Positions 1,272 through 19,602 of a stretch of 32,000 nucleotides of DNA are shown piece after piece. The position numbers were made by a program, and so were the translations under genes. The DNA comes from an uncultured Eubacteriales bacterium (GTDB lineage Bacteria; Bacillota; Clostridia; Oscillospirales; Butyricicoccaceae). The stretch is from assembly GCA_910579575.1 (NCBI GenBank), contig CAJTUM010000004.1, positions 80,839 through 112,838 of the forward strand, given 5' to 3'. Every line of letters begins with the position of its first letter. The stretch's first letter is position 1. A model generated the notes under the pieces. It saw nothing but the letters and a program-made list of their open reading frames with translations, was not told where the DNA came from and searched no databases.

Positions 1272-1796
1272 ATGTATGCCTCCACTTCCGAGATCGTTCG
1301 CAAGGCCAACCATATTGTACGACAATGTGGGACTCGTGACCCCCACAAGATAGCAGACGAACTCGGTATTGAGATTCTCTATTGTCCTTTTAAGGCTCAG
1401 CGTGGTGCCTACAAGGTCATCATGCGAAACCGTTTTATGTTCGTGAAAGAGGATTTGCACCCTGTTATGGAGAACATTGTGCTTCTCCATGAGCTGGGAC
1501 ATGACACTCTGCACCGAGAGGAAGCCACCCAAGTTGGCGGCTTTGAGGAGTTTAATATCTTTGATATTCGGGACAGCAGAATGGAATATGAAGCTAATAT
1601 CTTTGCCACGCAGATTGCACTCCCAGACGACGACTTTTTAGACTTGGCAGAGCAAGGCTACGATGTGCAGCAGATAGCCGCTGCCTTACACTCCGATGTG
1701 AACCTTGTCGCTCTAAAGGCGGACACTCTTATCTCACAGGGGTACAGGCTCAGACCGCAGGAACATCGGAACGACTTTTTACGGTTCGATAAATAA
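1272..1796 (+). CDS. ImmA/IrrE family metallo-endopeptidase (DUF955)
   Basis: HELGH zinc-binding motif in VLLHELGHDTLH. Size and position after the XRE gene match the ImmR/ImmA arrangement. GAGGTGAGGG RBS. Confidence 0.85.
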   Translation: MYASTSEIVRKANHIVRQCGTRDPHKIADELGIEILYCPFKAQRGAYKVIMRNRFMFVKEDLHPVMENIVLLHELGHDTLHREEATQVGGFEEFNIFDIRDSRMEYEANIFATQIALPDDDFLDLAEQGYDVQQIAAALHSDVNLVALKADTLISQGYRLRPQEHRNDFLRFDK

Positions 1797-1819
1797 AACA
1801 TGGGAGGACAACGAAGCGT

Positions 1820-3343
1820 ATGCAGAAGCAGTATATAGCTATCGACTTAAAATCGTTTTACGCTTCGGTGGAGTGCGCCGAAAGAGGTCTCGATCCCCTT
1901 GACGCCAACCTTGTTGTTGCGGACGAAAGCAGAACAGACAAAACCATCTGCCTTGCCGTCTCTCCCGCCCTGAAAGCGCATGGCATATCCGGTCGAGCAA
2001 GGCTCTTTGAAGCCAAGCAGCGTATCAAGGAAGTAAACAGGGAAAGGCAAAGAAAAGCTCCCGAACACCGGTTCAGGGGCAAATCAATCTATGGCTCGGA
2101 GCTGGCAAAAGACCCGACGCTGGAACTTGACCTTGTTATTGCGCCGCCACGAATGGCTTATTACATGGACTACAGCAAAAGCATAGTTGAAATCTATATG
2201 CGCTATGTCTCCTTCGATGATATCTTGGTCTACTCTATCGACGAGGTTTTCATCGACGCCACACCGTATCTCTCAACCTACAACATGAGCGCCCACGATT
2301 TTGCTATGATGTTGATTCAAGAGGTCTTGAAGGAGACTCGAATCACCGCCACCGCTGGAATTGGCACGAATATGTACCTTGCGAAGATTGCGATGGACAT
2401 TGAGGCAAAGCATATCCCCGCCGACAAGGATGGCGTCCGTATTGCAGAGTTGAATGAAACGAGCTATCGGGACAAACTCTGGACACACCGACCGCTTACA
2501 GACTTTTGGCGGGTGGGCAGAGGAATTGCCCGTAAATTGGAGCAAAACGGTCTTTTCACTATGGGCGACATCGCCCGCTGCTCCGAGGGAAAGGATACAG
2601 ACTACTATAACGAAGATCTGCTTTACGAACTCCTCGAAGTAAACGCCGAGCTGCTCATAGATCACGCTTGGGGCTGGGAACCCACTGAAATAGCAGACTG
2701 TAAGGCGTATAAGCCAGAATCAAAAAGTCTCAGTCAGGGGCAAGTGCTATCTTGTCCCTATGACTTTCATGCGGGCAGGATCGTTGTCCTTGAAATGGCA
2801 GACCAACTCTCTATGGACTTGGTTCGGGCAGGTCTTTTCACCGATCAGGTGGTGCTTGATGTTGGCTACGACATTGAGAATCTGACAGACCCAAAACGAG
2901 CTGCCAAGTATAAGGGCTCAATCGTAACAGACCACTATGGGCGGCAAATCCCGAAAGGGGTTCATGGCTCAAAGAGCTTGGGCAGGCAAACATCCTCCAC
3001 CAACAAAATCATGGATGCGGTTGCCGCCATTTATGACAGCATTGTGGATAAGAGCCTTTTAGTCCGGCGCTTCACAGTCGCCGTTACCCATTTGATACCA
3101 GAGGGTGAGGCAGAGTCCGCCATTCAGGTGGGCGAGCAGCTCGACCTTTTCACAGACTATGAGGCATTGGAGCAGCAGCGGAAGGCCGAAGCAGAAGCGC
3201 TTGACCGTGAACTCAAAATGCAGAAGGCGATTATCACCATTCGAGACAAGTTCGGAAAAAATGCCATTGTTAAAGGGCTTAATATGCACGAAGGCGCTAC
3301 TGCTATAGAGCGCAACAAACAAATCGGCGGTCACAAGGCGTGA
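1820..3343 (+). CDS. Y-family DNA polymerase (UmuC/DinB/UvrX-like translesion polymerase)
   Basis: N-terminal IAIDLKSFYASVE and YSIDEVFIDAT catalytic Asp/Glu motifs typical of the IMS/Y-family. 507 aa. GGGAGGA RBS. Confidence 0.9.
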   Translation: MQKQYIAIDLKSFYASVECAERGLDPLDANLVVADESRTDKTICLAVSPALKAHGISGRARLFEAKQRIKEVNRERQRKAPEHRFRGKSIYGSELAKDPTLELDLVIAPPRMAYYMDYSKSIVEIYMRYVSFDDILVYSIDEVFIDATPYLSTYNMSAHDFAMMLIQEVLKETRITATAGIGTNMYLAKIAMDIEAKHIPADKDGVRIAELNETSYRDKLWTHRPLTDFWRVGRGIARKLEQNGLFTMGDIARCSEGKDTDYYNEDLLYELLEVNAELLIDHAWGWEPTEIADCKAYKPESKSLSQGQVLSCPYDFHAGRIVVLEMADQLSMDLVRAGLFTDQVVLDVGYDIENLTDPKRAAKYKGSIVTDHYGRQIPKGVHGSKSLGRQTSSTNKIMDAVAAIYDSIVDKSLLVRRFTVAVTHLIPEGEAESAIQVGEQLDLFTDYEALEQQRKAEAEALDRELKMQKAIITIRDKFGKNAIVKGLNMHEGATAIERNKQIGGHKA

Positions 3344-3353
3344 GGTGATAAGA

Positions 3354-3794
3354 ATGGCCAGTGGGAAAAAAGAATACAGCGACATTTTTGACCGTCCTCA
3401 TCATGTGTCCTCCAAACGGCCTCAAATGTCGAGAAGCAACCGAGCTGCACAGTTCTCACCCTTCGCCGCCCTTACCGGCTATGACAGTCTTGTTGCTGAA
3501 TCCGCAAGAGTTACAGATCAAAAGGTCAAGCTTTCAGATGAGGAATACGAGGTATTGAACAAACGGCTCAACTACCTGCAAGACCACCTTTCAGAATTGC
3601 CTATTATTCAGGTTCTCTACTTTGAACCTGACAAGAAAAAATCCGGCGGCTCCTATGTTGAATTTTCAGGAACAATAAGGCGAGTACGGCAGCACGAAGG
3701 TTTGCTTCTCACGACCACCAGCATTGAAATCCCCTTTGAGAGTATTGCAGAGCTGTCCGGCGACTTTTTTGCCCCTCTCGATTCCCTTTCATGA
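3354..3794 (+). CDS. YolD-like protein (proposed UmuD-equivalent partner of Firmicutes Y-family polymerases)
   Basis: Lies immediately downstream of the polymerase gene. RAAQFSPFAALTGY resembles the conserved YolD-like core. ATG at 3354 with TGAGGTGA 5 nt upstream is preferred over the GTG at 3345. Confidence 0.6.
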   Translation: MASGKKEYSDIFDRPHHVSSKRPQMSRSNRAAQFSPFAALTGYDSLVAESARVTDQKVKLSDEEYEVLNKRLNYLQDHLSELPIIQVLYFEPDKKKSGGSYVEFSGTIRRVRQHEGLLLTTTSIEIPFESIAELSGDFFAPLDSLS

Positions 3795-3833
3795 CAAGAA
3801 CTCCGATAGTCATTTGACTGTCGGAGTTCTTGT
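3794..3833. terminator. 13-bp perfect hairpin between convergent operons
   Basis: ACAAGAACTCCGA (3794-3806) pairs with TCGGAGTTCTTGT (3821-3833) around a 14-nt loop, followed by CTTT on the + strand. It sits between the yolD-like stop and the res stop. Confidence 0.5.
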
Positions 3834-3835
3834 CT

Positions 3836-6800
3836 TTACATTGCGCTCATAATGTTTAGCAAGCTCTGGTAGCTATCCACATCATGGTATTTCACCTTGC
3901 TTGTTGACATCTCATTAAACAGCTTTTTAGCACAGGAGATTTTAGCCTGCTCTATTGGCCTTAGATTCAAACTCTCCATCGTACCCTTTGTTTCAGCGAC
4001 AAAGAAGATATGCTTGACTTTTCCCTCATAAAAGGCGATTGCCCAATCCGGCGAGTAGTTGCCCACTGGGGTGGGAATCTGAAATGTCCTTGGGAGCTTC
4101 GCATAAACACAAACCTCTTCGGCTGCATCCAAATCCTCAGCAAATCGCCTCTCCACACTCTTTTCAGCAGAACCATCCGTAAACACATAGTCCTGAATTG
4201 CCTTCTTTGCCAGAAAAGCTTTTTCAAAGGGCTGTGTGTTTTTCTCTGCGGTGAAAATGTCAGAGTCATATTGCCCTTCAATCGTGTCGTAGGAGATATG
4301 CTCTACAATCATAGTTGCCTTTTGTTCGTTTATGAGCCTTACGACCTTGGAGATAAACTCTTCAGGATTATTCCTGAACATATAAAGCTTGTCCATCCGA
4401 AGTCCTTGCAGAATGGCAGAGGCGGTTTTACGAGTCAAAACAGTACCGGACGCAATCTTGCCAATCAGGTCATACTTGATTTGGCTGGTTTCTGCGTGTC
4501 TGAGCGTCTGCGTCCTCGTCTTTTCCCCAGCGAAGGACTCTCCACGCTCCACCTCATAGGCATTCATTTCGGACTTTTGAGCGCCGATCGTGGCTGTGTA
4601 CTGAAGCTCTGAGACAAAGAGCTTTTCATTGATATGGTCGATAGCCTTCTCTATCAACTCATCAGAATCAAAATCCACGGTGTAGGCGTATTTGTGATTG
4701 ATCTCCTTCCAAAGGGCTTGGAACTCCTTTTTGGCGAAGTTCTCATTGAGCGGATTATCTTTCACCTTAGTTTCATGCCCGTCAGTGAACATATCCTTGA
4801 GAACACTGTCGTCGTAGACGGACTGAATCAGCGCATGGACACCCTCCGCCATCGGCTTCAGCTCCTCCGGCAGCTCCGCAACCGTATTCATTGCCACTTC
4901 GTTCCGGTATTTGTCAGTGACCTTGCGCTTCATATCAACATAACCGTTCTGAATCAGATAGAACTCAATCGCATTTGCGGCGTTGTCATCTATCAGCGTC
5001 GGTACACCATCCACCTTGACATATTTTCCCTTGAAATACTCGCTGGTTGCAACCGTCGGTCTGTCATAAAGGACGGTCTTGATATCGGACTGCAAATCGG
5101 TCACAAAGTCCTTATAGCTTTCACTTGCAATGACCGTCAGCATGTTCACATCATGAATCGAATCCCCGCAGCTCTGGACATCCATTCGGTTTCCGTCCTG
5201 ATTGACACACAGTCGCAGGCCACGACCAACTTCCTGCCGTTTGGCGGTGTTGCTGTCAGAGTGCTTCAGGGTGCAAATCTGGAACACATTGGGGTTGTCC
5301 CAACCTTCCCGCAGGGCAGAGTGGGAGAAAATAAACCTTGTGGGTTCTCCAAAGGAAAGCAGCCGCTCTTTGTTCTTCAAAATCAAGTCATAGGCAGAAA
5401 TGTCGTCTGAGAACTCGCTGCCTCGCTTGAGCTGACTGTCAACACTTCTGCCGGTCTTTTTGTCGATGCTGAAGTATCCCTTATGTACTGCGTTTACATC
5501 ACTGCAAGTGGATTTCAAGTATTTCTGATAGGGCGTGTCAAAGAGCTGGACATAATCGTTCAGAACACTGACATACTCCTGCTCAAACATCTGCCCATAC
5601 TCGCCCAGCACCTCATTGCCATCTTCGTCATACTGGCGGTATTTCGCCACCTCGTCGATGAAGAACAGGGACAGGCACTTGATGCCCTTGTTATAAAGCC
5701 TTTCCTCTTTCTCAAAATGGGAAAGGATCGTCTCACGAATCTGAATCTGGCGCATATCCTTTTCAGAAACATCGCCCACCACATCGCCGGTTTTGATTAC
5801 ATCGCCGTTCGTAAAGGTGACTGTGCCTTGCAGCGGGTCAATCTCAGAAACGGTATAGCCTTTATATTGCTCCATCTCCTGAGACACATAGAATAAATCG
5901 TCCCCCACGCCGAGAATACGGGTCTCACGGTTAATGGACTTGTTGTAGGCAATCTCCAGCTCTATCTTCGCCATAGGCGGCTTCTTGGAAGAGAGCATGA
6001 TTTGCTCCAGATACAGATAGCTGTCTGTGCCTCTGAAGTTCTTGACTTCAAAACCTTTGACTTCAATCTTCTTAACCAGCTTCTTGTTGAAGGCGTCCAG
6101 CGCATCCAACACATAAATCAGGTTGTGCTGCTTTGCATGGGTGGCTGAGTAGTTCAAGCAGAAAAGAGGGTTGAAGTTCTTGAGTGCCTTTTGCGTAACC
6201 TCACCGCCCATTTTCTGCGGCTCGTCCAAAATAATAATGGGTCTGTTTGCTTTGATAACATCAATAGGTCGGCGGGAGCCGAACTCATCACGCTTGGAAT
6301 ATATGATTCTGGCTTCTTTGCTTTTTCCGTCCTCCTTCAGCGAGGAAGCAAACGCCTGGGTGTTGATAATCATCACATTGATGCCGGAGCTGGAAGAGAA
6401 GGTATCCAGTTGATTGAGGTTGGAGCTGTTATAGATAAAGAATCTCGCCTTTTTGCCGTAGTGTTCCATGAAGTGGTCGGCGGTGATCTCAAATGATTTC
6501 TTCACGCCTTCACGAATCGCTATGCTGGGAACGACCACGATAAACTTGCTCCAGCCATACTTCCGGTTCAGCTCGAACATGGTCTTGATATACACATAGG
6601 TCTTTCCAGTGCCGGTCTCCATTTCAATGTCAAGGCTGCACCGGCCCAGGTTCTTCACAAGGGAGGGCGACAGCTTGATGTTGTTCTGGCTCTGTAAGGT
6701 CTGGATATTTTTCAATAGCTGCTCGTCGGACAACTCCACCAGCTCATTTTTATAGCCCGTATCGTTCAGGGGGTCAAGCAGCTCAGAATCCTCCTGTGCC

Positions 6801-6955
6801 ATGTCAAGCGTGATCTGATAATTCTGCGGCTCCGTTTTCTTTCCGAGGTCACGGATATAGCTGATTTTGTCGTGAAATCCCTGACCCTGAAAGACTTTTA
6901 CCACAGCATCAACGGCATCAGTTTGGTATTGTTGGATTTTGAAGTTGAATTTCAT
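3836..6955 (-). CDS. res: Type III restriction endonuclease Res subunit (SF2 helicase plus C-terminal PD-ExK nuclease)
   Basis: Walker A GTGKT (6599-6613), motif II IIILDEPQ, motif VI QEVGRGLRL. C-terminal YSPDW...FFVAETKG is a PD-(D/E)xK motif (Asp codon 4046-4048). The start MKFNFKIQQYQ at 6955 forms an ATGA overlap with the upstream stop; the track start at 7009 is less likely. Confidence 0.9.
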   Translation of the reverse strand: MKFNFKIQQYQTDAVDAVVKVFQGQGFHDKISYIRDLGKKTEPQNYQITLDMAQEDSELLDPLNDTGYKNELVELSDEQLLKNIQTLQSQNNIKLSPSLVKNLGRCSLDIEMETGTGKTYVYIKTMFELNRKYGWSKFIVVVPSIAIREGVKKSFEITADHFMEHYGKKARFFIYNSSNLNQLDTFSSSSGINVMIINTQAFASSLKEDGKSKEARIIYSKRDEFGSRRPIDVIKANRPIIILDEPQKMGGEVTQKALKNFNPLFCLNYSATHAKQHNLIYVLDALDAFNKKLVKKIEVKGFEVKNFRGTDSYLYLEQIMLSSKKPPMAKIELEIAYNKSINRETRILGVGDDLFYVSQEMEQYKGYTVSEIDPLQGTVTFTNGDVIKTGDVVGDVSEKDMRQIQIRETILSHFEKEERLYNKGIKCLSLFFIDEVAKYRQYDEDGNEVLGEYGQMFEQEYVSVLNDYVQLFDTPYQKYLKSTCSDVNAVHKGYFSIDKKTGRSVDSQLKRGSEFSDDISAYDLILKNKERLLSFGEPTRFIFSHSALREGWDNPNVFQICTLKHSDSNTAKRQEVGRGLRLCVNQDGNRMDVQSCGDSIHDVNMLTVIASESYKDFVTDLQSDIKTVLYDRPTVATSEYFKGKYVKVDGVPTLIDDNAANAIEFYLIQNGYVDMKRKVTDKYRNEVAMNTVAELPEELKPMAEGVHALIQSVYDDSVLKDMFTDGHETKVKDNPLNENFAKKEFQALWKEINHKYAYTVDFDSDELIEKAIDHINEKLFVSELQYTATIGAQKSEMNAYEVERGESFAGEKTRTQTLRHAETSQIKYDLIGKIASGTVLTRKTASAILQGLRMDKLYMFRNNPEEFISKVVRLINEQKATMIVEHISYDTIEGQYDSDIFTAEKNTQPFEKAFLAKKAIQDYVFTDGSAEKSVERRFAEDLDAAEEVCVYAKLPRTFQIPTPVGNYSPDWAIAFYEGKVKHIFFVAETKGTMESLNLRPIEQAKISCAKKLFNEMSTSKVKYHDVDSYQSLLNIMSAM

Positions 6956-8250
6956 ATCCCCACATCCTTTTCCAAGAACATAATCGCCACAGAAACCAGG
7001 GCAAGACACCGTTTATAGAAATATTCTATCTGCCGTTCATCTGTAAAGTTAATCTTTGTTGTTTCGTGGTGACGGATTCTGAAATCGTTTCCCATAGTGG
7101 TCAACGCCCTAAACTCGGTCTCATACAAAGTTTTGAAATGAGTTTCAGAAGCGCTCATATCATCAATGATTTTGTTCGCTGATTCAGACTTGTTAAGTGC
7201 CGGAGAATAGTAAGTTTTTAATCTCTCGAACGCATCCCATAGCTTCTCGACTGCGATTTGCATATTGCCTTTACGATAGTAGTTGTCTGCCTCCAGAAGC
7301 AGATCTTTCAACCCCTGCTCTGAAATAATAGATATGTTTCCTTTATCTATAGATATTTCAAAAGTGCTTTCAATCCGTCCCTGCTCAAGTCTATATGATA
7401 TGCCATTGAGTTTGAGCAAAGCATTGATTTGATCTGCAAAATCGTTATCGGCGTTATATTTCTCGTAAAACTCAATCGCATCAAAAACGGAGAACGGGGA
7501 TGTGCTTAACACGAACTGTTCCATATCGCTTGTCTTTGCGTATTGCCTTTTTTCATTATAACATTTCGGCTCGTAGAATTGAGAGATATCTCGGAACACA
7601 TATTCACTTGTGGAAATGTGTTCTTGCCAGCCAGTGTCACTGGTTTCAAGATAAGCATCTGTATGTCTTTCAAGGATGGCATATATCTGCTTCCGTGCCT
7701 CACGACTGATTTTCTGAGTTAGATGGCGTGATTTAATTTCTGCTTTATGTCTTTGTGAAAACGGAATAAATAAAGCGCTTTCGCTCGGGTCGTACTTTCT
7801 CCAACCATAGACATCCCGACCGGAGATTTTTGCTTCGGGGTGCAATTCATATCCGTCTTTCCGGAGAAGTTCGTTTGCCGCATCTAAAAATCTCTTCCAA
7901 TATCCTCCCTCGTCTCTAACTGCTGGGTGGAACACAGAACATAGAAATCTTAGGAGGGTTTCATCTTCTCCGTTCATCAACCCAAAGCGTTCGTCCTCAA
8001 ACACCCATCCATCTTCATAATCATTGTTGTTCACAGTATGTTGCAGAATATCGCCCTCAGCATCATCAAAACGGCTATCAAAGCTCGGGAGTTCTTTGAG
8101 ATTGTAAATTCTCTTCAAAAAATCCAGCTCGCTTAGCCTTCCACAAAAGGCATACCTAACTCGCTTGCTTTCAAAGAATTCTTCTATGTCCAGACCGCAT
8201 ATAAACAATGAGAAAATGTCTCTTCTGGTTATTTCTGAGATATGCTTCAT
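6952..8250 (-). CDS. Uncharacterised 432-aa protein; possible AbiJ-like architecture with a C-terminal HEPN-like domain
   Basis: Clean ORF coupled at both ends (TAATG with mod, ATGA with res). C-terminal helical region carries GNDFRIRHHE (7063-7080), resembling the Arg-His core of HEPN/AbiJ-type domains. The segment FDAIEFYEKY...QINALLKLNGISYRLEQGRIES resembles my memory of AbiJ N-terminal domain signatures. Family call is unverified. Confidence 0.5.
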   Translation of the reverse strand: MKHISEITRRDIFSLFICGLDIEEFFESKRVRYAFCGRLSELDFLKRIYNLKELPSFDSRFDDAEGDILQHTVNNNDYEDGWVFEDERFGLMNGEDETLLRFLCSVFHPAVRDEGGYWKRFLDAANELLRKDGYELHPEAKISGRDVYGWRKYDPSESALFIPFSQRHKAEIKSRHLTQKISREARKQIYAILERHTDAYLETSDTGWQEHISTSEYVFRDISQFYEPKCYNEKRQYAKTSDMEQFVLSTSPFSVFDAIEFYEKYNADNDFADQINALLKLNGISYRLEQGRIESTFEISIDKGNISIISEQGLKDLLLEADNYYRKGNMQIAVEKLWDAFERLKTYYSPALNKSESANKIIDDMSASETHFKTLYETEFRALTTMGNDFRIRHHETTKINFTDERQIEYFYKRCLALVSVAIMFLEKDVGI

Positions 8251-10127
8251 TACAATACCTTCCTCACGGTCTCAGGGCTATACGCAGCAAAAATCTGCTC
8301 AAAGTTCGTGGCTACGCTGTCGCTGGCCATGGAACTGTCCCGCATAACGAAATAATAGGGTTTTTGCTTTGCAATTTCGGTGATTACCTCATCGGTCACA
8401 GCCTCGTCAAAACAGGCAATCAGGTAGTTGCCCTCCACTTTGAACACTCGCTTGCCGGCAATGGCGCTTTCCTCAATCTTACTGGAGAGCAGTACGCCCA
8501 AATCCAGCATGACTTGGAACAGTAAATCCTCCGGTGTTCTATCCTCTTTGATGTTATCCTCAAGGCTGCTGAACAGAGAGGCTTCATAATCGGCGGGGTT
8601 GTAGTAGACATCTTTCATGTTGGAACTATCGCATTTCAGCACACGGAAGCCGATATCAAGGCCATGTGCGGTGAGCCCGGCTTCTTCCTTGATTTTCGCA
8701 CCGGCACGACGAATACGCTCTTTGCCGATTTCGCAGATATTCTTGTAACCGGCTTTATAAGCCTCGCTTTTCTCATCTGTTTCTTCGGGAAGCTGAACCA
8801 TAATAAACTTGCGGTGTCCACCATCCTCAGCGTTGAGCTGCATAACTGCGTGGGCTGTGGTGGAAGAACCAGAGAAGAAATCCAACACAATAGAATCGCT
8901 GTTAGCCGCAATTCTAATCATCTGCTTAATATACTCTACCGGTTTCGGAAAATCAAACAACTTCTCATCGTCAAAAAGTGCCTTAACTTCTCTTGTTGCC
9001 GACTGATTATGTCCCACTTCTTCTGCAAGCCAAAGTGTGCTTGGTGTTCTTCCATCTTGGACATCGGAAAGAAATCTCTTTTTTCGTGGAAATGAATTCC
9101 CATCGCTCCCAAACCAAATTTGCCCATCTACGACCAGCTTCTCCAAGTTTTCTTTAGAATAGACCCAATGCTTCCCAGCCGGGACATCAAATTCCTTCCC
9201 CGTCTTGGGGCTTCTAATAATAAAATGACCGTTGCTTCTTTCTCCGCTCGCAACCAAATCTCCCGATTGCCAAGGCCCTCTTGGATCACCATCAGGATTT
9301 TTATATCGGTCATTCATTTCATTTGTTCGTGGAAGAAGATTTATGTGAATCTGGTTAATACTTTTCGAGTAAACGACTGCGTACTCATGATTCTCAGATA
9401 GATACTTAGCGTCATTTTTTATGCTGTGGATTTTTTGCCAAACAATTGTTGCAACAAAATTGGCCTCACCGAACACATCATCACACAGAACTCGCATATT
9501 TCTTAACTCGTTGTCATCAATACTGATAATAATGATTCCATCATCTGTCAGTAAATCTTTTGCGAGTTTCAACCGTGGATATAGCATATTCAGCCAGTCT
9601 GTGTGAAAGCGCCCATTACTTTCGGTGTTCTGCACCAGCCGGTTGCCGTCCTCGTCAAACTGCCCACTGTCTTCAAGGTACTCGTCCACACTCTCGGCAA
9701 AGTCATCGTTGTATACAAAGTCATTGCCGGTGTTGTAGGGCGGGTCTATGTAAATCATTTTGATTTTGCCCAGATAAGTCTCCTGAAGCAGCTTCAGCAC
9801 TTCCAGATTATCGCCCTCAATATAGAGGTTTTCTGTGGTATCAAAGTCCACGCTTTCCTCTCTGCAAGGTCTAAGCGTCTTGTTAATCGGAGCATTGGCA
9901 AGCAGGACAGACTTCCTCTTATCTGGCCAGGTAAACTGATAGCGCTCCTCCCGACCCTCCACTACCTTGGTGGAAATCTCCTGCATCAGCATATCCTTAT
10001 CAATGGCTCGGACGACCTCGCCGGTGGCCTCGTCAATGGTTTCCGTCACTGCATTGGGAAACAGCGCCGCCAGCTTCTTGAAGTTTTCATCCGCTCTATT
10101 TGCAGTCATCATCTTAAGCTTGTCCAT
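8250..10127 (-). CDS. mod: Type III DNA methyltransferase Mod subunit (N6-adenine/N4-cytosine, beta-class)
   Basis: Motif IV DPPY (9735-9746) in KMIYIDPPYNTGNDF. AdoMet motif I VLDFFSGSSTTAHAV lies C-terminal to it, as expected for the beta permutation. Start MDKLKMMTANRAD at 10127 follows a GGAGGAG RBS; the track start at 10208 is less likely. Confidence 0.9.
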   Translation of the reverse strand: MDKLKMMTANRADENFKKLAALFPNAVTETIDEATGEVVRAIDKDMLMQEISTKVVEGREERYQFTWPDKRKSVLLANAPINKTLRPCREESVDFDTTENLYIEGDNLEVLKLLQETYLGKIKMIYIDPPYNTGNDFVYNDDFAESVDEYLEDSGQFDEDGNRLVQNTESNGRFHTDWLNMLYPRLKLAKDLLTDDGIIIISIDDNELRNMRVLCDDVFGEANFVATIVWQKIHSIKNDAKYLSENHEYAVVYSKSINQIHINLLPRTNEMNDRYKNPDGDPRGPWQSGDLVASGERSNGHFIIRSPKTGKEFDVPAGKHWVYSKENLEKLVVDGQIWFGSDGNSFPRKKRFLSDVQDGRTPSTLWLAEEVGHNQSATREVKALFDDEKLFDFPKPVEYIKQMIRIAANSDSIVLDFFSGSSTTAHAVMQLNAEDGGHRKFIMVQLPEETDEKSEAYKAGYKNICEIGKERIRRAGAKIKEEAGLTAHGLDIGFRVLKCDSSNMKDVYYNPADYEASLFSSLEDNIKEDRTPEDLLFQVMLDLGVLLSSKIEESAIAGKRVFKVEGNYLIACFDEAVTDEVITEIAKQKPYYFVMRDSSMASDSVATNFEQIFAAYSPETVRKVL

Positions 10128-11913
10128 TATGGTCTCCTCCATTATTCCAGAAGTGGTATATTGGGAATTGCTTGAATTTGCTTTGAATAGCAGCAGGCAA
10201 CTTCTCAAAGTGAATCTCAGCGGCAGTTTGTTGCTCTAAAAGGAGATATGCTCCAACGATTGTTTCTTCTCCGACGCCAGGTGTCTCTATAAGACGATAG
10301 AGTTCTTTTTTCTCCTCTTCTTCCAGTTCCCTTTGCCGCTTCTTAATCTGCAAATCATTCAAAGTCCTTATTGGGTAAGGCAGCTCTTCTTCCGAGGCTG
10401 TCTTTATCCAGTCGGAAAAGGATATAGCTGTAGCAAGCATTTCAGGCTTTGAGCTTATATCATAGGCATTCAAAATTTCCAGCAAAAGATAATTTGCTCG
10501 TGTCATCGTTTCTTTGTTACGCTCAGTCTTTTGAAAGGATGGCAGTAGAACATCATATCGAATATTATCCGCTTCAAGGAAATCCTTGGCTCTGAGATTG
10601 AAATACTGAGAAGTTGTCAATTTTTCACCTTTCTTGTCCTCGTAAACACAGAGCAACTCTGTTGTAAAGAAATCCGATATTCTGTACGCATCACCCTCGT
10701 CTCCGTCCTTGAACAGGCATACAACAAATCGCAAATTGCCAACTTCCAATGTCAAGACAGGTGGCAGATCTTTTTTGAGACCACCTACCGGTTCATTATC
10801 AATTATCCCTTTTATTAAAATATTAATATTATTCCAATCCTTAGCCTGTAATGACTTCAGGTCAATATCTCTCTCACACCCGAACCGGTCGAGCAATTGG
10901 ACAATCTTTTTAAAGTAGACCAATCGTCCTCTCATTTCATCTCTTGGGAAGTTGGAAAAATCAGCGCTATCAATATTAAAGGGGAAAGATGCTCCATTAT
11001 ATGTGAAGCTTTTATTATCTATCAGAGCCAGAATAAAGCTCAGGTCAACTGTAAGTGCTCTTAGATTGTGAGTGCCTTTATAATTGAACTTAACCGCTTT
11101 ACTCTCCACTTGAGTAGTAATTGAAAAACTTTCTCCAAAGAGAGTTCTGATTGTTTTACCATCTCGGACAACTCTTACTCTTGTATAGAAAAGTTGCTCT
11201 CCCACCATGATGCGAGCATCCTTTTCTTCATGTACCACCAATCTTTGCGGAATTGCCTCAATCGGTTGTGGAATCACTCCTCCTTTGATATTTGCATACA
11301 GATAAACCTCATTTGTTAACAGGGCTGTTTGTGGATCAACGCCACCAACGCTTGTAACTGAAAGAGTAACACTTTCTAATGTACCCTGTTGCTCAAGCTC
11401 CTCAATTGAGTAAAGATTTGCTTTAGCAAAGCTTGCCTGGCGTCGGCAATCCTCCCAGCAGTTAATGACAATCATCTCTTTTTTATTATTGTCCGACGGG
11501 AATCTGTTAAGTTTGATGCTCTTTGATGCTTGTCCCTTCGCTTCTTCAAGGAGCATCCTGATTTTGATGGGAGTTAAGCTCGCATAATATATCTGAATGT
11601 TTTGTCCGCTATGCCCAATATAGACTACAAAAAAGATAACACCGCCATCGTCAAGGTAGCTATTGAGTTCGATGATAGAAACAGGAAACGATATCTCTTC
11701 CTTTGAAAGATCATCCTTTTCCGTTCCTTTAACCTGAACCGGAATCCTTCTTACTCCATCCTTCGTTTTACGCTTATCTCTGTAAATATAGATATGACCA
11801 TCCCATGTTGGCTCCTTATCGTTATCATTTATAAATGGACTAAGAAGTTCGCACACAGTTATGCTATTTTTTACCGCACTAATTGCAAGGTCTTCTATCG
11901 CTTTCTTGTCCAT
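10114..11913 (-). CDS. 599-aa protein with a DUF4365-like PD-(D/E)xK nuclease-fold N-terminus and a large uncharacterised C-terminal region
   Basis: N-terminus has E..(x)..PTWDGHIYIY..(x)..RIPVQVKGT (Asp codon 11800-11802, QVK ending at 11728), the D...QxK pattern of DUF4365/restriction-endonuclease-like domains. GAGGTGA RBS. The stop overlaps the mod start by 14 nt. Markedly AT-rich. Confidence 0.6.
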   Translation of the reverse strand: MDKKAIEDLAISAVKNSITVCELLSPFINDNDKEPTWDGHIYIYRDKRKTKDGVRRIPVQVKGTEKDDLSKEEISFPVSIIELNSYLDDGGVIFFVVYIGHSGQNIQIYYASLTPIKIRMLLEEAKGQASKSIKLNRFPSDNNKKEMIVINCWEDCRRQASFAKANLYSIEELEQQGTLESVTLSVTSVGGVDPQTALLTNEVYLYANIKGGVIPQPIEAIPQRLVVHEEKDARIMVGEQLFYTRVRVVRDGKTIRTLFGESFSITTQVESKAVKFNYKGTHNLRALTVDLSFILALIDNKSFTYNGASFPFNIDSADFSNFPRDEMRGRLVYFKKIVQLLDRFGCERDIDLKSLQAKDWNNINILIKGIIDNEPVGGLKKDLPPVLTLEVGNLRFVVCLFKDGDEGDAYRISDFFTTELLCVYEDKKGEKLTTSQYFNLRAKDFLEADNIRYDVLLPSFQKTERNKETMTRANYLLLEILNAYDISSKPEMLATAISFSDWIKTASEEELPYPIRTLNDLQIKKRQRELEEEEKKELYRLIETPGVGEETIVGAYLLLEQQTAAEIHFEKLPAAIQSKFKQFPIYHFWNNGGDHNGQA

Positions 11914-11918
11914 TCATA

Positions 11919-12518
11919 TCACCTCAACAGTCCCTTTAGCTTGTTTACCTGCTGCACCAACTCAAACTTCTTCTTCGGCTGCTTCTCAGCCCTTGCCAGC
12001 TTTTCCAGCCTTGCTATTTCCTTTTCTAGTTTCTGCCTCTTCTCATCTTCCACAATTTGCTCATCCAGAGAACGGCCTTTCTCAACCGTCACATCACCAA
12101 CAGTGACAACAACATTTTCCCAAACCCTGTCGAGGTCAAGACCATGAAGTTCTATCTGCTGGGTAGCAGTAGTTTTCCACTCCGACTGCATCAGCTTTGT
12201 ATGGTAGATTGCAAGCCTGCTCTGTCCATCGTGTTCAAGGACAAAAAGGATATTCTGTGGAATCAGCTTTGAGAGCATCCCTATTGTCCGTTCCTCATAG
12301 TCCTTTCTTTTGAGGGACACCAAAAGGACAAAAAAGCTCTTTACTTCCTCCCCCGCAGGAATGTTGACCTTTGACGGCGTAATCTCATTGACAATACTGA
12401 TTTTTGAAATGTCAGCGTCTATCTTGGCTTTTGCTGCTGTGTTCATCTGAAACTTGGCATAGATCGCTTTCTTGGGAAGCTGTTTATTCATTTCTGTTGC
12501 CTTTGGCAGCCCAAGCAT
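11919..12518 (-). CDS. DUF4391-like protein with a C-terminal coiled-coil tail
   Basis: About 200 aa. MLGLPKATEMNKQLPKKAIYAKF...ISKISIVNEITPSKVNIP...FVLLVSLKRKDY...IPQNILFVLEH matches my memory of DUF4391, a family usually found next to SNF2 helicases and methyltransferases. Lies 4 nt after the helicase stop with a GGTGAGGTGA RBS. Confidence 0.6.
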   Translation of the reverse strand: MLGLPKATEMNKQLPKKAIYAKFQMNTAAKAKIDADISKISIVNEITPSKVNIPAGEEVKSFFVLLVSLKRKDYEERTIGMLSKLIPQNILFVLEHDGQSRLAIYHTKLMQSEWKTTATQQIELHGLDLDRVWENVVVTVGDVTVEKGRSLDEQIVEDEKRQKLEKEIARLEKLARAEKQPKKKFELVQQVNKLKGLLR

Positions 12519-12522
12519 GGTT

Positions 12523-15500
12523 TCACCTCACCACTAAGAAACATATCAATTCAAAATCATCGAGTCCTTTAATTTCATTGGAGAGGAAGCTCACTTGACC
12601 GCCGCCCAGGAAGCTGTCAATGTCGCTCTCTTCCTTCACTTCTATGATGGAGGCTATCGCCTGCCCAAGCAGTTTTGAAAGCTGGGACATATCTCTGCCG
12701 TCCCGAGTTTCCTTGTTAAACTGCCGGTACACTTCGGGAATCGGCTCTGTCTTTCCCTTACACAGCAGGCGCATCTTGTCCAGCATCTGTTTAGGGGAGA
12801 GGTGGTCACAAATCACTTCACCATCGTTACTGATATACACCATGTAAAACGGGTGGAGCCTGTTCTGGTTATCAATATTCACGCTGTCCGAACGGTTTTT
12901 TAGAACATAGACTACGCCTGCCGGAGCATCCTCGGTTGCTGGAACCACCGCATTGAGGCCGAAGGGGGCCTTTTCAATATCAGGATGGTTTTTTATATAC
13001 TCCAACAGGTCAAGGCGAAACTCATTGAGACCCAAATCCATAATAGAAATGCCGGAGGTCATATCCTCAATATCAACGACCTCATCTTGCAGCTTCCGCA
13101 GCTGCGCCTTTCGATACTCCAGATCGGTCTTTTCCTCATCGCTCAAAATGTTATCGTCACCGGTCGCTGTCATGTCCACGATTTTCATTCGTGTCTCGAC
13201 CTTGGCTTTCAGGTTTATGTAGTCATCAAGCGTTACATTAGGCCAGAAGTTTACAAGCTGAATCACATTGTTTCTGCTGCCGATACGGTCGATTCGCCCA
13301 AACCGCTGGATAATACGGACAGGATTCCAGTGTATATCGTAGTTTATTAGGTAGTCGCAATCTTGCAAGTTCTGACCTTCCGAAATACAGTCTGTAGCAA
13401 TGAGAATATCAATATCCTCTTTGGGTATGCTTTCAAAAAGGTCTCTGTCCTTGGAGATGGGCGAGAAGCAGGTCAGAACTGTATTCAAATCGCTTCGGAG
13501 TTTCGGACATGTGGTTCGTCCGTCAACGGTGCCGGAGACCATTGCCGTATTGATATTGTATTTTGCTTTTGCATACCCGCTGATATTGTCATAGAGATAC
13601 CCTGCTGTGTCCGCAAAGGCCGTGAAGATAATAATCTTTCTATTCCCTTCATTGATGGGATGTGCAATTTTGTCATCAATCACGCTGAGTAGCTTTTGCA
13701 GTTTAGAGTCATGCTCAGGGGTAATGTCTCCTACCATGACAGTGAGCAGCTCCAGCACCTCGGCGTCTTTGGACAGGCTGTCTCTCCATGACAGATAATC
13801 CATATCCACAAGGTCAATCTTCACTTTCCGGCCAAGGGAAAACAAATCCTCGGTATTCTGATCCTCGTCGTCAAACTCGTCGATATCAGAAATATCCGTC
13901 AGGTCAAGGTTCAAGCCGGATTGCTTGTCAAATTGGTCGATTGTGCTGATCGTGCTCTCAATAAGCTGCTTTATGCGCTTCAGCGTCAGGTTAAAAGAGA
14001 AAACCGAACTCTCCATGCGTTTCATCAAATTGATTGCTGTCAGCCGCCGGATGCCCTGTTCACGGTTGGCCTGCGTGAAGCCCACATTGACTTTGTTATC
14101 CCCATACAGCTCAGCATATTTGTCCATCTTGCTCGGGAGGATATAGTGCGTCGGCGTGTAGATCGTCAGCGTGAGAAGCATAAGTTGCTCGAATATCTCA
14201 TTGTAATTGATGGCCGACTCTAAATCCGTGAGGTTCGGTCTATGGGAAATCGGGATAAGTCTTGTGGGAAATGTGCCCACATCGCTGGTGTCATAATACT
14301 TCTGAATATGCTTTCTGGAACGGGCAATGGTAACGCTGTCCAGAACCTCGAAAAAATCAAAGTCCAGCATTTTAAGCAGGTTTTCTGTTGTCCGATCCTC
14401 CGGTGCCCATTTGCTCCAGGTGTTAAATGCCCGCTGAGCGTTTCTGAATATCTCATCAATGGAGCGTGAAGTATTGAGCTTATCGTCTATAAAGTCAGTG
14501 TGGCCCTCGTAGGCAAGCGCAAGCTGGTTCTTCAGGTCAAGAAACTTGTTGTTGACGGGGGTAGCCGAGAGCATGAGGACTTTTGTCTTGACGCCGGCCC
14601 TGATTACCTTTTTCATCAAAGTGACATAGCGGTTATCTCTATCGCTCTCATCGGGATTCTCGATGATCTTGCCGCCGTTTCTGAAATTATGAGACTCATC
14701 AATGACTACGAGATCATAATTGCTCCAGTTGATTCTGTTTAAATCTATTCCGTTGGAGAATCCACTCGTTCTGTTGAGATCAGTATGGTATAGGACATCA
14801 TAACGGAGCCGGTCTGCGGCAATTGGGTTATTGATATAGTTGTCCTTGTATGTATTCCAGTTGTTAGCAAGTTTTTTCGGGCATAAAACGAGAACTGTCT
14901 TGTTGCGATTTTCGTAATACTTGATTACCGAAAGTGCCGTAAAGGTTTTTCCCAAGCCAACGCTGTCTGCCAAAATACAACCGTTGTACTTTTCCAACTT
15001 ATTGATGATTGCCAGGGCAGCATCCTTTTGGAAATTGTAGAGCATATTCCAAATCTTACTGTCCTTGAACCCCGTTGCTTCATTTGGTAGCACATCTTCG
15101 GATACATCTTCAAGAAACTCATTAAAAATGTTATAGAGGGTAACAAAGTAAATGAAATCAGGGGAGTTTTCGTTATAGGCAGCGGTAATGCTGTCGATAA
15201 CCTCCTCTGTCACATCCTGTAACACTCGTTTGTCATTCCAGATTTCATTGAAGTCCTTAATAAGTGTTTGCGCTAAGGATTGATCCTTTACGATTGTCGT
15301 GCTAATGACATTTCCTTTTTCACAGCCGAGTTCAACGGTTGTAAAATTGTTGATTGGAGTATAGCCGACATCGCCTACAACCATCTGCCCTTGAATGGAC
15401 TTATCACTGACATTTGATTTGAATGTAACTTTGTTTCTGATCCAATCTGCACATTCTTTTGCAATCGCCTTCTGAGTCAGTTCATTTCGCAGTTTAATTT

Positions 15501-15762
15501 CAAACTCAGTTCCATACAAACTCCGCTCTCGGTTTAGACGGGGAATATAAAACTCCCGCTTTTCTTTCCTTGCTTTTTCTGCTACGAAGGTCGGAGAGGT
15601 AAATATGAAGCGCAACTCGTTTATGGAGCTGAGCTGTGCTTTCAGCTCCTCAAAAGCATAGATTGAGAAGCAAGCCGCTGCAATAGAAAGTTTGCTCCCT
15701 GGTTTTATCTCGACGGACAAATCATCTTTTAGCGTTTTTGTCGTATTATTGATTAGCTCCAT
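12523..15762 (-). CDS. SNF2-family (SF2) helicase/translocase with an N-terminal extension of about 240 aa
   Basis: Motif I ADSVGLGKT (GLGKT 14944-14958), motif II VVIDESHNFRN (DESH 14689-14700), motif III MLSATPVNN, motif VI QRFGRIDRIGS. AGGAGA RBS 7 nt before the ATG at 15762. No HxK(x)4D motif seen in the N-terminal extension. Confidence 0.9.
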   Translation of the reverse strand: MELINNTTKTLKDDLSVEIKPGSKLSIAAACFSIYAFEELKAQLSSINELRFIFTSPTFVAEKARKEKREFYIPRLNRERSLYGTEFEIKLRNELTQKAIAKECADWIRNKVTFKSNVSDKSIQGQMVVGDVGYTPINNFTTVELGCEKGNVISTTIVKDQSLAQTLIKDFNEIWNDKRVLQDVTEEVIDSITAAYNENSPDFIYFVTLYNIFNEFLEDVSEDVLPNEATGFKDSKIWNMLYNFQKDAALAIINKLEKYNGCILADSVGLGKTFTALSVIKYYENRNKTVLVLCPKKLANNWNTYKDNYINNPIAADRLRYDVLYHTDLNRTSGFSNGIDLNRINWSNYDLVVIDESHNFRNGGKIIENPDESDRDNRYVTLMKKVIRAGVKTKVLMLSATPVNNKFLDLKNQLALAYEGHTDFIDDKLNTSRSIDEIFRNAQRAFNTWSKWAPEDRTTENLLKMLDFDFFEVLDSVTIARSRKHIQKYYDTSDVGTFPTRLIPISHRPNLTDLESAINYNEIFEQLMLLTLTIYTPTHYILPSKMDKYAELYGDNKVNVGFTQANREQGIRRLTAINLMKRMESSVFSFNLTLKRIKQLIESTISTIDQFDKQSGLNLDLTDISDIDEFDDEDQNTEDLFSLGRKVKIDLVDMDYLSWRDSLSKDAEVLELLTVMVGDITPEHDSKLQKLLSVIDDKIAHPINEGNRKIIIFTAFADTAGYLYDNISGYAKAKYNINTAMVSGTVDGRTTCPKLRSDLNTVLTCFSPISKDRDLFESIPKEDIDILIATDCISEGQNLQDCDYLINYDIHWNPVRIIQRFGRIDRIGSRNNVIQLVNFWPNVTLDDYINLKAKVETRMKIVDMTATGDDNILSDEEKTDLEYRKAQLRKLQDEVVDIEDMTSGISIMDLGLNEFRLDLLEYIKNHPDIEKAPFGLNAVVPATEDAPAGVVYVLKNRSDSVNIDNQNRLHPFYMVYISNDGEVICDHLSPKQMLDKMRLLCKGKTEPIPEVYRQFNKETRDGRDMSQLSKLLGQAIASIIEVKEESDIDSFLGGGQVSFLSNEIKGLDDFELICFLVVR

Positions 15763-16611: not shown

Positions 16612-17100
16612 CTATCCATTTATGTATTGAACCTGAACGCCACATCTGGCAGCATAATCAATCGTGTTCTTTGTTCCGCTTTTCTCGCCGTTGAATACTG
16701 CGATAACAAGGGCAGAATGGTCTACCATCCATTCGTTTCGTCTCTGATATGCTCCCGCATGATAGGCAGGGCATATATACCGAATCAAGTCAGCTTTACC
16801 AAGCAGTTCAGCATATCGTTCCTTCCATTCCCTCGACCACCGGCTCTCAAAGCCGTCAAAAGGCACAGCAGCAATCAAATGCAACTCTGGATTTTCTTCT
16901 CTCAACCGGACAACAACTTCGCCAGCCCAAATATCTACACCGTAAGCCATCCCCGTTATGAAGGTCGTGTACCCAGCCTCTATTGCCTTGACAATGACTT
17001 TTTCCAAGTCATGCCTGATTGCGCCCTCTGAGCGAGTGAGTTTCTGTGGCCTATGACCTGTGAAGCAGCACCGCTTTTTTCGTTTTTCCTTCTCTGTCAT
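16612..17100 (-). CDS. SLOG-superfamily protein, DUF1273/YpsA-like
   Basis: CCFTGHRPQKL near the N-terminus, FITGMAYGVDIWAGE, and a C-terminal SGTKNTIDYA segment match the DUF1273 (YpsA) Rossmann-like signature. AGGTGG RBS. Confidence 0.75.
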   Translation of the reverse strand: MTEKEKRKKRCCFTGHRPQKLTRSEGAIRHDLEKVIVKAIEAGYTTFITGMAYGVDIWAGEVVVRLREENPELHLIAAVPFDGFESRWSREWKERYAELLGKADLIRYICPAYHAGAYQRRNEWMVDHSALVIAVFNGEKSGTKNTIDYAARCGVQVQYING

Positions 17101-17580: not shown

Positions 17581-17609
17581 ACTGCCACCCTGACGGGTGG
17601 CAGTTTTTT
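17581..17609 (+). terminator. Rho-independent terminator
   Basis: ACTGCCACCC (17581-17590), loop TGAC, GGGTGGCAGT (17595-17604), then a T-run through 17609. It lies immediately after the XRE stop. Confidence 0.8.
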
Positions 17610-19602
17610 AGTATTGTGGTACTCCGTAGCCAAAGATCACGCTGGCACCAACCGTATAAGAGTTAATTCTCACACTGTCGCCGGAGTTGCCCTCCACAGT
17701 GTAAACAAGACCGCCTTCGACCTTCTGCACAATGCCTGTGTGGTCTGTTTCACCGTCTCCTTCCCAATCGAAAAAGATTATCATGCCGGGCGAGGGTTCG
17801 GCGGCGTTGTCCATCCACTGCCCTCTGTCCTTGAACCACTGAGAACCAAGGGTGCATCCGGCGTACTTGGGGATGACCCCTGTGTCAATATAGCCGCACT
17901 CGTTGGCACACCAGCTTACAAAGCAGGCACACCACTCAACACGAGAACCAAATCCGTACCAGCTCCAATAAGGCGCTCCGCCGTAGTTTCCGATCTGGGA
18001 CAAGGCGACGGTAACAATCTGATCGTCGCTGTAACCAATCCCATAAAGAACAGCCGACCATAGGGAGTTGTTCTCATCTTGCAGCAACTCGGCAAGGTAG
18101 TCCTTCTGCTCCTGCGTAAAACCGTACTGTGCCGCCATCTCATCTACCGTCTTATGGCTTACAACGATATAGAGCGTCGTATAGGTTTCCGTTGTCTCGG
18201 TTTCAATAATGTTCCCTTCCCCATCGTCTGTCTCCGTTGTAAAGGTGGTGCTGCTCGTCTCTGTGTGCGACGATATTGAGTTCATCTCCCAGAAGATGTC
18301 GGATAAGAGTTGCTTCTTGCTATCGTCCATTGTGGCGACTTCCTGTGGATTATCAGGGTCGGTATTCACCTTAACCGCATAGACTGCAAGCACCTCTTTC
18401 CAAACCGCTCTACTTCCACTCATCTCAAGGGAATCATAGGACACAGCGTTTTTCTCGGCTTCCAGCCGGGCGTCATAGTCCTCATTGATCTCCTGTACGA
18501 CCGTCCGCATACTCATACCTGTTCCGGAATCCTCGCCGGAAAAGAATATTCCGAAAATGGAGCTGACAAGTAGACCTATCATACAAATTACGACAATTAC
18601 GAGAAGCGCTACCCAGCCACCAGCAATAATTGCACTGACAAGAGCCTTTGTTGCGGCAATAATGGCTTTGATGGTCGCAACAGTGACCTTCACAGCAGCT
18701 TTCACTCCTTGCGCTGCCGCTTTCGCCGTTGCCTTTGCCGCCTGAGCCGCTTTCTGTGCAGACTTGGCGGTAGCCTTAGCCGCTCTCTCCGTTGCTTTCG
18801 CAGCTTCTTTCGTGGTCTTAACCGTTGTTTTCGCTGTCCGCTCTGCGGTTTTAATAGATTTCTTCGTAGTTTTTGCCGCAGCCCGCTGTGTTGTCTTAAT
18901 GGACTTCTTACCGGCTGACTTTGCAGATTCATTTACCCGCTTTTCTGACCGCTCAACAATGCGGTGAGATTTGCTTCCAGCAGATTGTGAGCGTATATTG
19001 GATTTATCATGCCCCGTTATTCTCTCTGGGAAAACATCGACACTCTTTTCCATATTGTGCCTCTGCTTTGACCGAATCATCTGCTCGGCTCTTTTCTTTC
19101 CCTGCTCATACACACGCTTGGATGGCTCCTCCTGCCTCCCTGAGCGCTGTCTCGTTCCACCCCTTGGAGATGATGGGCTATACTCTTTACCCCTTGTATG
19201 GGTGATTGGTTCAGATGGAGCGTAGTTCTCTGTCTGAACCGCCTGTTCAATCTGAGATTCACGGGTTTTTATCCCCTTGCCCTTTTTTGATTGCTCGACT
19301 TTTACCGCTTTGAAGTTCTCGACCGCCCGCTTTGCTTCGTGAACATCCTCCTTGACATGAGAAACACTGTTTCTGCCTATCTTCTGAGCTTGATGTCCTG
19401 TCTCATGCGCTACTGTCTCCGCTCCGGCTTCCATACGAGAGGAAGCATATTCCTCCACGCTTCCCTCTGTGGGATTTGTGGAAGTCTCCGCTTTCTCTTT
19501 GGTTTGGATGAATGCCCTACGCATACGGTCAGAGGCAATCGCTGCTCGGTCGAGTTGCTTTATCGCGCCTTTTATGGCGTCCTTGGTCTTGATTTTCCCC
19601 AT
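17608..19602 (-). CDS. Conjugation-associated cell-wall hydrolase: long charged/Ala-Lys-rich N-terminal region, one TM segment, C-terminal CHAP (NlpC/P60-like) domain
   Basis: C-terminus has VEWCACFVSWCANECGY (catalytic Cys) and ETDHTGIVQKV...YTVEGNSGDSV (His, EGN), the CHAP signature. Hydrophobic stretch GGWVALLVIVVICMIGLLVSSIFGIFF. GAAAGGAGGG RBS. Confidence 0.85.
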   Translation of the reverse strand: MGKIKTKDAIKGAIKQLDRAAIASDRMRRAFIQTKEKAETSTNPTEGSVEEYASSRMEAGAETVAHETGHQAQKIGRNSVSHVKEDVHEAKRAVENFKAVKVEQSKKGKGIKTRESQIEQAVQTENYAPSEPITHTRGKEYSPSSPRGGTRQRSGRQEEPSKRVYEQGKKRAEQMIRSKQRHNMEKSVDVFPERITGHDKSNIRSQSAGSKSHRIVERSEKRVNESAKSAGKKSIKTTQRAAAKTTKKSIKTAERTAKTTVKTTKEAAKATERAAKATAKSAQKAAQAAKATAKAAAQGVKAAVKVTVATIKAIIAATKALVSAIIAGGWVALLVIVVICMIGLLVSSIFGIFFSGEDSGTGMSMRTVVQEINEDYDARLEAEKNAVSYDSLEMSGSRAVWKEVLAVYAVKVNTDPDNPQEVATMDDSKKQLLSDIFWEMNSISSHTETSSTTFTTETDDGEGNIIETETTETYTTLYIVVSHKTVDEMAAQYGFTQEQKDYLAELLQDENNSLWSAVLYGIGYSDDQIVTVALSQIGNYGGAPYWSWYGFGSRVEWCACFVSWCANECGYIDTGVIPKYAGCTLGSQWFKDRGQWMDNAAEPSPGMIIFFDWEGDGETDHTGIVQKVEGGLVYTVEGNSGDSVRINSYTVGASVIFGYGVPQY

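Follow-up and report, generated by a model that had tools for sequence, protein, structure and literature searches.

ORF599, a protein of 599 amino acids (aa), is encoded on the minus strand of a 32,000-nucleotide stretch of DNA from an uncultured Eubacteriales bacterium (contig CAJTUM010000004.1 of assembly GCA_910579575.1; the whole of this stretch is called the window below), among the genes of a defence operon built from an SNF2-family helicase, a DUF4391 protein and the Mod and Res proteins of a type III restriction system. The reading to which we lean, with slightly better than even confidence, is that ORF599 is a self-contained single-gene defence nuclease cassette housed in this SNF2-DUF4391-Mod-Res operon and not one of the operon's subunits. 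The data support this reading through the fold of the protein, its intact catalytic residues, a fixed two-part architecture, its location in a variable slot and its independence from the restriction core. The parts of the gene and its borders are as follows:

10114..11913, minus strand: ORF599 (N-terminal DUF4365/DREN domain and C-terminal region), ATG start, 599 aa
11419..11913, minus strand: DUF4365/DREN nuclease domain of ORF599, from Pfam, the secondary-structure order of the AlphaFold2 (AF2) model and Foldseek
11728..11802, minus strand: catalytic motif, D38 (beta-2) to Q60-x-K62 (beta-3), invariant in relatives
10114..11418, minus strand: C-terminal region, residues 166-599, a beta-rich middle and then a helical-repeat tail; AF2 predicted local distance difference test score (pLDDT) 85.5
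11914..11926, minus strand: upstream junction, 5 nt between the DUF4391 stop and ORF599, with GAGGTG as ribosome-binding site
10114..10140, minus strand: downstream junction, 14 nt shared with the start of mod (ATG at 10127), and GGAGGAG, the ribosome-binding site of mod

A conserved two-part protein

ORF599 is a genuine and conserved gene. In one homology search 520 full-length homologues of about 600 aa were recovered at 46-94% identity, and the C-terminal 434 residues used as a query matched 1361 clusters at 50% identity, 889 of them with E<=1e-10, numbers that set ORF599 apart from a chance open reading frame (ORF). Among the top 150 of the 1361 C-terminal matches, nearly all start at residue 160-180 of a protein of about 600 aa, i.e., the C-terminal region nearly always stands behind an N-terminal part of about 165-175 residues, which is the length of the nuclease domain; from this near-uniform start the two-part architecture looks fixed. 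The shorter entries in that set resemble fragments, and one protein of 793 aa has an additional N-terminal extension. Gut Clostridia supply most of the family members in species-representative genomes, some others coming from Bacteroidales, Treponema and Desulfovibrionaceae, and relatives are also carried by plasmids and a phage: distant full-length ones on Clostridium botulinum and Priestia plasmids (23-27% identity, labelled 'DUF4365 domain-containing protein') and a further distant one in a Clostridium phage (annotated 'hypothetical protein'). These two labels are all that the sources offer, none giving an informative name for an ORF599 homologue, and a megablast search of E. coli genomes with the ORF599 gene gave no match. 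At three loci (L039, L041 and L049) the homologue is broken into two ORFs by frameshifts or stops, which suggests occasional inactivation, as for a potentially toxic gene.

The evidence supports residues 1-165 as a DUF4365/DREN-type PD-(D/E)xK fold with intact catalytic residues. The original prediction, made from the letters of the window, had proposed such a restriction-endonuclease-like N-terminus on the pattern E...WDGH...PVQVKG at 11728-11802, and the pattern is borne out as E34-P-T-W37-D38-G-H40 and P58-V-Q60-V-K62-G63, with D38 to K62 at 11802-11728 and a further acidic residue, E7, on helix 1 (11893-11895). Against the Pfam family DUF4365 (PF14280) the whole of ORF599 scores 22.3 bits, under the cut-off of 24.3, and the isolated residues 1-165 score 25.6 bits (E 1.4e-5), above it; 24 of 27 diverse relatives match the same family, the best with E 1.1e-8. 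E7, D38, Q60 and K62 are invariant both in an alignment of 30 close sequences (A1) and in one of 27 more distant sequences (A6), and N31-D-K-E-P35, W37-D38, Q60, K62 and G63 are also invariant down to about 29% identity in the nuclease domain. The AF2 model of the domain (pLDDT 89.4) has the elements H3-19, E24-27, E38-43, E55-65, H80-88 and E92-100 (H, helix; E, strand), which is the order expected for the DUF4365/DREN PD-(D/E)xK fold. The top Foldseek matches in the PDB are the DREN-APAZ chains of SPARDA systems (9jsz_J, 9vx6_T, 9jt2_B and 9qcc), with 9jsz_J the best (E 1.4e-3, prob 0.96), and these are lost once residues 1-165 are removed, so that they are due to the N-terminal domain. Searched by sequence, the PDB gave only chance matches to full-length and N-terminal profiles; it is thus Pfam and the fold, and no direct similarity of sequence, that tie ORF599 to SPARDA. 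The original prediction had named the lack of a predicted PD-(D/E)xK fold as a ground for giving up the nuclease assignment, and the separate searches of the N-terminal part do predict that fold. The retained residues suggest that ORF599 may act as a Mg-dependent nuclease of the PD-(D/Q)xK kind.

The rest of the protein, in which the original prediction had recognised nothing, likewise yielded no relative in Pfam, PDB or BFVD when residues 166-599 were searched separately. Modelled on their own they give pLDDT 85.5, with a beta-rich part followed by a helical-repeat tail; the PDB fold search with this model returned nothing significant (best E 0.18), the BFVD search no significant match, Pfam at E<=1 no family common to more than 3 of 14 members, and the PDB sequence profile no match in this region. 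The helical tail drew only weak TPR-like matches (E > 0.1) in PDB and BFVD. An APAZ identity for the region was considered and rejected on the ground that its model has no SPARDA match. Many of its residues are nonetheless invariant among relatives, from which it follows that the region is under selection.

A variable slot between DUF4391 and mod

ORF599 is fitted closely between its neighbours. The DUF4391 stop is the TGA at 11921-11919 and ORF599 starts 5 nt further on, with GAGGTG upstream of it; at its other end the 3' part of ORF599 contains GGAGGAG (10134-10140), the ribosome-binding site of mod, and the mod ATG at 10127 is overlapped by 14 nt. The gap and the overlap are both as first described, and ORF599 is co-transcribed with the operon and probably also coupled to it in translation. 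The description of the gene as AT-rich relative to its neighbours also holds: its GC content is 0.399 and its GC content at third codon positions (GC3) 0.378, as against a GC3 of 0.518-0.605 in the core genes (SNF2 0.546, DUF4391 0.53, Mod 0.518, Res 0.605). The second inserted gene of the operon, which is AbiJ-like, has a likewise low GC3 of 0.423.

The interval that ORF599 fills, termed slot 1 here, was surveyed by means of a DUF4391 alignment, with which 80 metagenome loci were fetched; 70 of these hold both DUF4391 and mod, and ORFs were called in them from 90 aa upward. The distance from DUF4391 to mod ranges from 436 to 3491 bp, and the slot contains 18 different gene sets in the 70 loci, with one locus lacking a called ORF. 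The occupants include the following:

TIR protein (PADLOC PDC-S66), 7 of them with a second small gene: 18 loci
DUF6680 protein: 8 loci
ORF599: 7 loci
Unannotated 166-aa protein: 5 loci
Second TIR family: 4 loci
Unannotated protein of about 360 aa: 4 loci
SieB-like proteins: 4 + 3 loci
ThsB-like TIR protein: 2 loci
KAP NTPase (PDC-S20): 2 loci
SIR2 plus HerA, a known two-gene system: 2 loci
AAA_13 ATPase with a PrrC-like C-terminus (PDC-S06): 1 locus
DUF2513 protein: 1 locus

Thus, known defence systems and candidates (SIR2 plus HerA, PDC-S66, PDC-S20 and PDC-S06, with Pfam support included) share the slot with ORF599; SIR2 (E 2e-155) and HerA (E 7e-255) were both identified in the slot of sister operons. 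The borders are exact, each cassette beginning -4 to +25 nt from the DUF4391 stop and homology resuming in sister operons at the mod ATG, the Mod product beginning with the conserved MDKLKMQTANKADEN. The interval from mod to res, slot 2, is as variable and has been found to hold Abi_C, 23S_rRNA_IVP, RhuM, DUF2971, AbiJ-like and unannotated proteins. In the more distant operons of IMG/VR, DUF4391 directly abuts mod in 8 of 18 loci and mod directly abuts res in 10 of 15, and from these empty slots SNF2-DUF4391-Mod-Res emerges as a complete four-gene core to which both slots are optional. The suspicion that the position ahead of mod would vary among related loci is therefore upheld, but its interpretation as a swappable effector position of the type III machinery is not, the slot being shared with the autonomous SIR2-HerA system.

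Several recurrent slot 1 families of 166-358 aa have no Pfam match, and those compared with PADLOC have none there either. By the same logic of embedding these too would be further defence candidates; they are found at the following places:

L092:11482-12054, L112:6741-7238, L022:8915-9988 and L083:10622-11128
L087:5615-6457, L119:2747-3376, L108:6048-6791 and L128:7410-8135

One locus departs from the usual layout in having two tandem Mod genes (L034:12685-16564), both about 55% identical to the Mod of the window, and an additional 271-aa gene behind its ORF599 homologue.

The deviant GC3, the absence of ORF599 from most sister operons and the lack of a match in curated defence libraries could each be accommodated if the gene were a non-defence passenger, i.e., a selfish or decaying insertion with no immune role. 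This we hold to be very improbable. The reading frame in the window is intact and full-length, free of the frameshifts that mark a few relatives (L039, L041 and L049); the catalytic residues and many C-terminal ones are invariant across relatives of only 25-60% overall identity; and the family is large and fixed in architecture, its genomic context consistently defence-related and its integration into the operon as tight as that of known defence cassettes. The original prediction had taken absence from all related operons, coupled with dispensability, as the signature of such an insertion: ORF599 is indeed absent from most of them and the core does exist without it, but it is not absent from all.

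Independence from the restriction core

ORF599 sits, in matching orientation, between members of a multi-gene defence system. Genes so embedded in operons of the Hma, BREX, DISARM and type I restriction kinds are usually defences in their own right, as has in part been validated (10.1101/2024.01.29.577857). Its own pattern of inheritance points the same way. Across 22 operons with ORF599, the identity of ORF599 and that of SNF2 have a Spearman correlation of 0.33, as against 0.85 for DUF4391 and SNF2, and in some pairs of operons the SNF2 proteins are 91% identical while the ORF599 proteins are just 31% identical. An 86%-identical ORF599 copy occupies the same slot in an operon with a different, 235-aa gene in place of the AbiJ-like one, and where a 63%-identical copy is found (72 assembly-index blocks) the slot also has two extra small genes.

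Beyond this operon type the family is at home in a range of settings. Among 56 genome loci of ORF599 homologues, about 19 fall within the operon type (about 36% of genome homologues) and about 60% of genome homologues lie outside it, e.g., after BREX brxL/pglZ, before an MmeI-type enzyme, or next to GmrSD, AbiEii, Mrr, a type I R subunit, a caspase-like protein and other defence genes. An abundant variant (L143) lies among metabolic genes, where the only such neighbours are an Abi_C gene and a Phd-type antitoxin, and no restriction gene is found within 10 kb of it. Nor does ORF599 keep constant company with Mod and Res, being present in 7 of the 70 close and 1 of the 18 IMG/VR operons. These counts, taken with the slot shared with self-sufficient SIR2-HerA and left empty in distant operons, run counter to the earlier claim that ORF599 is a second nuclease effector of the system. 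ORF599 behaves as an embedded cassette rather than a subunit.

A conventional type II nuclease paired with Mod was considered and rejected, as homologues occur without any methyltransferase nearby. That same ability to persist with no cognate methyltransferase, denied to a conventional restriction enzyme, would suit a modification-dependent, type IV-like endonuclease. In such an enzyme modified phage DNA would be recognised by the C-terminal region and cleaved by the N-terminal nuclease, making it a complement to the methylation-based type III system in the way that BrxU is to BREX. The union of a nuclease domain with a large non-catalytic region and no NTPase is in keeping with this, as are the adjoining GmrSD and Mrr genes of some homologues, and type IV enzymes often sit within restriction and BREX loci (10.1101/2024.01.29.577857; PMC12707154). 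However, searches of PDB, BFVD and Pfam with residues 166-599 detected no DNA-reader fold, be it SRA, YTH, EVE, winged-helix or another, and those DUF4365/DREN nucleases that have been characterised cut non-specifically, as collateral nucleases (PMC10810196, PMC12205087). We regard a type IV-like role as rather improbable.

A possible mode of action and its competitors

If ORF599 is a self-contained cassette, a model for its action might be sought in SPARDA, whose collateral nuclease is a DUF4365 (DREN) domain with the catalytic D41 on beta-2 and Q60/K62 on beta-3, dormant as a monomer and active once tetrameric (PMC12205087); the related TmuRE is inactivated by Q62A/K64A (PMC10810196). That a DUF4365 protein can be an anti-phage single-gene system is exemplified by Divona (10.1101/2024.07.02.601686). 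We infer for ORF599 a nuclease activity, a trigger, activation by oligomerisation and a defence phenotype: the C-terminal region of about 430 residues would be both sensor and assembly module, an infection cue would lead it to drive oligomerisation, and the nuclease domains thus gathered might degrade DNA, and possibly also RNA, indiscriminately, whereupon the phage would be stopped or the cell killed.

Several points weigh against a self-contained cassette of this kind. The trigger and oligomerisation steps are proposed purely by analogy with SPARDA, and PDB, BFVD and Pfam reveal in residues 166-599 no sensor, NTPase or DNA-binding fold. No model in PADLOC 2.0 or NCBIfam matches ORF599. Slot 1 is occupied in 69 of the 70 close operons, and its exact, translationally coupled junctions form a pattern compatible with cooperation between the slot gene and the core.

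The filled slot, the exact fit of ORF599 from the DUF4391 stop to the mod ATG and the coupled translation are also what might be expected of a guardian or back-up effector tied to the type III system after the PrrC paradigm, with slot 1 as a true swappable effector position. Mod and Res (or SNF2 and DUF4391) would then hold ORF599 latent until a phage anti-restriction factor inhibited them and so freed the nuclease. In favour of such coupling one may further count the other slot 1 occupants, which are toxic effectors of the abortive-infection type with the PrrC-like AAA_13 protein among them, the precedent of PrrC within a type Ic locus (PMC12707154), and the share of genome homologues, over a third, that belong to this operon type. 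Yet most homologues lie outside the operon, beside unrelated systems or none, so that the association is not obligate; the slot also houses the autonomous SIR2-HerA; the core operon exists with no slot gene; and ORF599 alleles swap independently of the backbone, which argues against co-evolved protein contacts. On balance we consider a guardian role unlikely. An extension of the same idea, to which we give little credence, is that the entire arrangement SNF2-DUF4391-slot 1-Mod-slot 2-Res is a modular platform, its slot genes being interchangeable suicide effectors licensed or restrained by the core and freed when a phage disables it. If true, this would make ORF599 a restriction-system guardian of a new type, equipped with a novel sensor fold for reading the type III enzyme's state.

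The host operon and its conjugative element

Six closely packed minus-strand genes (SNF2, DUF4391, ORF599, Mod, AbiJ-like and Res) form one unit in the window. Its members other than ORF599, and the hairpin that ends it, are:

12523..15762, minus strand: SNF2-family helicase, core gene
11919..12518, minus strand: DUF4391 gene, core, left border of slot 1
8250..10127, minus strand: type III Mod methyltransferase, core, right border of slot 1
6952..8250, minus strand: AbiJ_NTD3/NTD4 protein, 432 aa (PADLOC PDC-S32), in slot 2 between mod and res
3836..6955, minus strand: type III Res with a C-terminal endonuclease domain, core gene
3793..3834, no strand: perfect hairpin with a 19-bp stem, bidirectional terminator-like, ending the operon

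The remaining junctions are as tight as those of ORF599: mod and the AbiJ-like gene meet in TAATG, and the true Res ATG, at 6955, forms an ATGA overlap with the AbiJ-like stop. The hairpin at 3793-3834 is placed between res and a convergent plus-strand gene that ends at 3794, and is likely a bidirectional terminator that marks the end of the operon; it alone stands out in a promoter and terminator scan of the operon, whose counts were otherwise no higher than those of shuffled controls. The SNF2 helicase, which is always accompanied by the DUF4391 gene, is matched from end to end by the PADLOC candidate model C3a139 'HKD+Snf2' (E 3e-126). The four-gene core is met mostly in human-gut metagenome contigs, and no published characterisation of it was found, literature on DUF4391 included.

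The operon is flanked by the following genes:

27502-28878: MobA/VirD2 relaxase
23819-25630: VirD4/TraG coupling protein
19646-21979: VirB4-like ATPase
17608-19602: CHAP-domain hydrolase
16612-17100: YpsA
1272-3343, on the other flank: M78 peptidase and ImpB/UmuC-type polymerase

From the relaxase, the VirD4 and VirB4-like proteins and the other flanking genes, it follows that the operon is cargo of a conjugative element. An ORF of 692 aa lies antisense to the VirB4-like gene, at 19751-21829 on the plus strand, and most likely codes for nothing, being a shadow ORF.

Significance and comparison with known systems

If active, ORF599 would represent a widespread family of stand-alone defence nucleases, mainly of gut Clostridia and some Bacteroidales, with over 1300 clusters at 50% identity, in which the DREN domain of SPARDA has been re-used with a different and structurally new control module. 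It would thereby offer a second, Argonaute-free setting for studying how DREN nucleases switch on. The type III/SNF2/DUF4391 operon on conjugative elements, with its two exact cassette slots, is also a source of further defence candidates, and a ready one because several of the slot gene families have no annotation.

Among known systems a parallel might first be struck with the DREN-APAZ proteins of SPARDA (NbaSPARDA, TmuRE and XauSPARDA), whose chains are the best fold match in the PDB. D38, Q60 and K62 of ORF599 answer, at almost the same positions, to D41, Q60 and K62 of NbaSPARDA, Q60 and K62 to Q62 and K64 of TmuRE (PMC10810196), and both groups place the nuclease domain at the N-terminus, ahead of a large regulatory region. 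In contrast to SPARDA, ORF599 has no APAZ domain, its C-terminal model lacking a SPARDA match, and no Argonaute partner gene, its neighbours being DUF4391 and Mod; no Piwi family is among the most frequent neighbour families of 30 other ORF599-homologue loci. Even by domain profile there is no sequence-level match between ORF599 and the SPARDA chains, and the one lies in a restriction operon while the others lie in prokaryotic Argonaute operons. Divona, compared here by its description, resembles ORF599 as a mobile cassette in which a stand-alone N-terminal DUF4365 domain precedes a non-nuclease C-terminal part; its C-terminal crr6 domain (PF08847) was, however, not detected in ORF599 by Pfam, and it is a Vibrio integron cassette, whereas ORF599 is an operon-embedded gene.

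With PrrC of the EcoprrI type Ic locus ORF599 has in common that a toxic nuclease, as predicted for ORF599, is encoded within a restriction-modification operon, and a PrrC-like AAA_13 protein fills the same slot in a sister operon. Unlike PrrC, ORF599 has neither an ABC-ATPase nor a HEPN-like anticodon nuclease domain, and it is not confined to one restriction system. A further parallel, in genomic organisation, is seen in the defence genes that lie nested within Hma, BREX, DISARM and type I loci, such as BrxU in BREX: like ORF599 they are nested in the same orientation in slots of variable content, which known systems share, and their homologues are also found non-embedded. The host of ORF599, a type III Mod/Res operon with SNF2 and DUF4391, falls outside the survey of such genes (10.1101/2024.01.29.577857). 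The nuclease domain of ORF599 belongs to a known family, while its pairing with this C-terminal region has yet to be characterised and is not covered by PADLOC 2.0; ORF599 is a solid defence candidate, one of many of this kind, with what would be a structurally novel control region.

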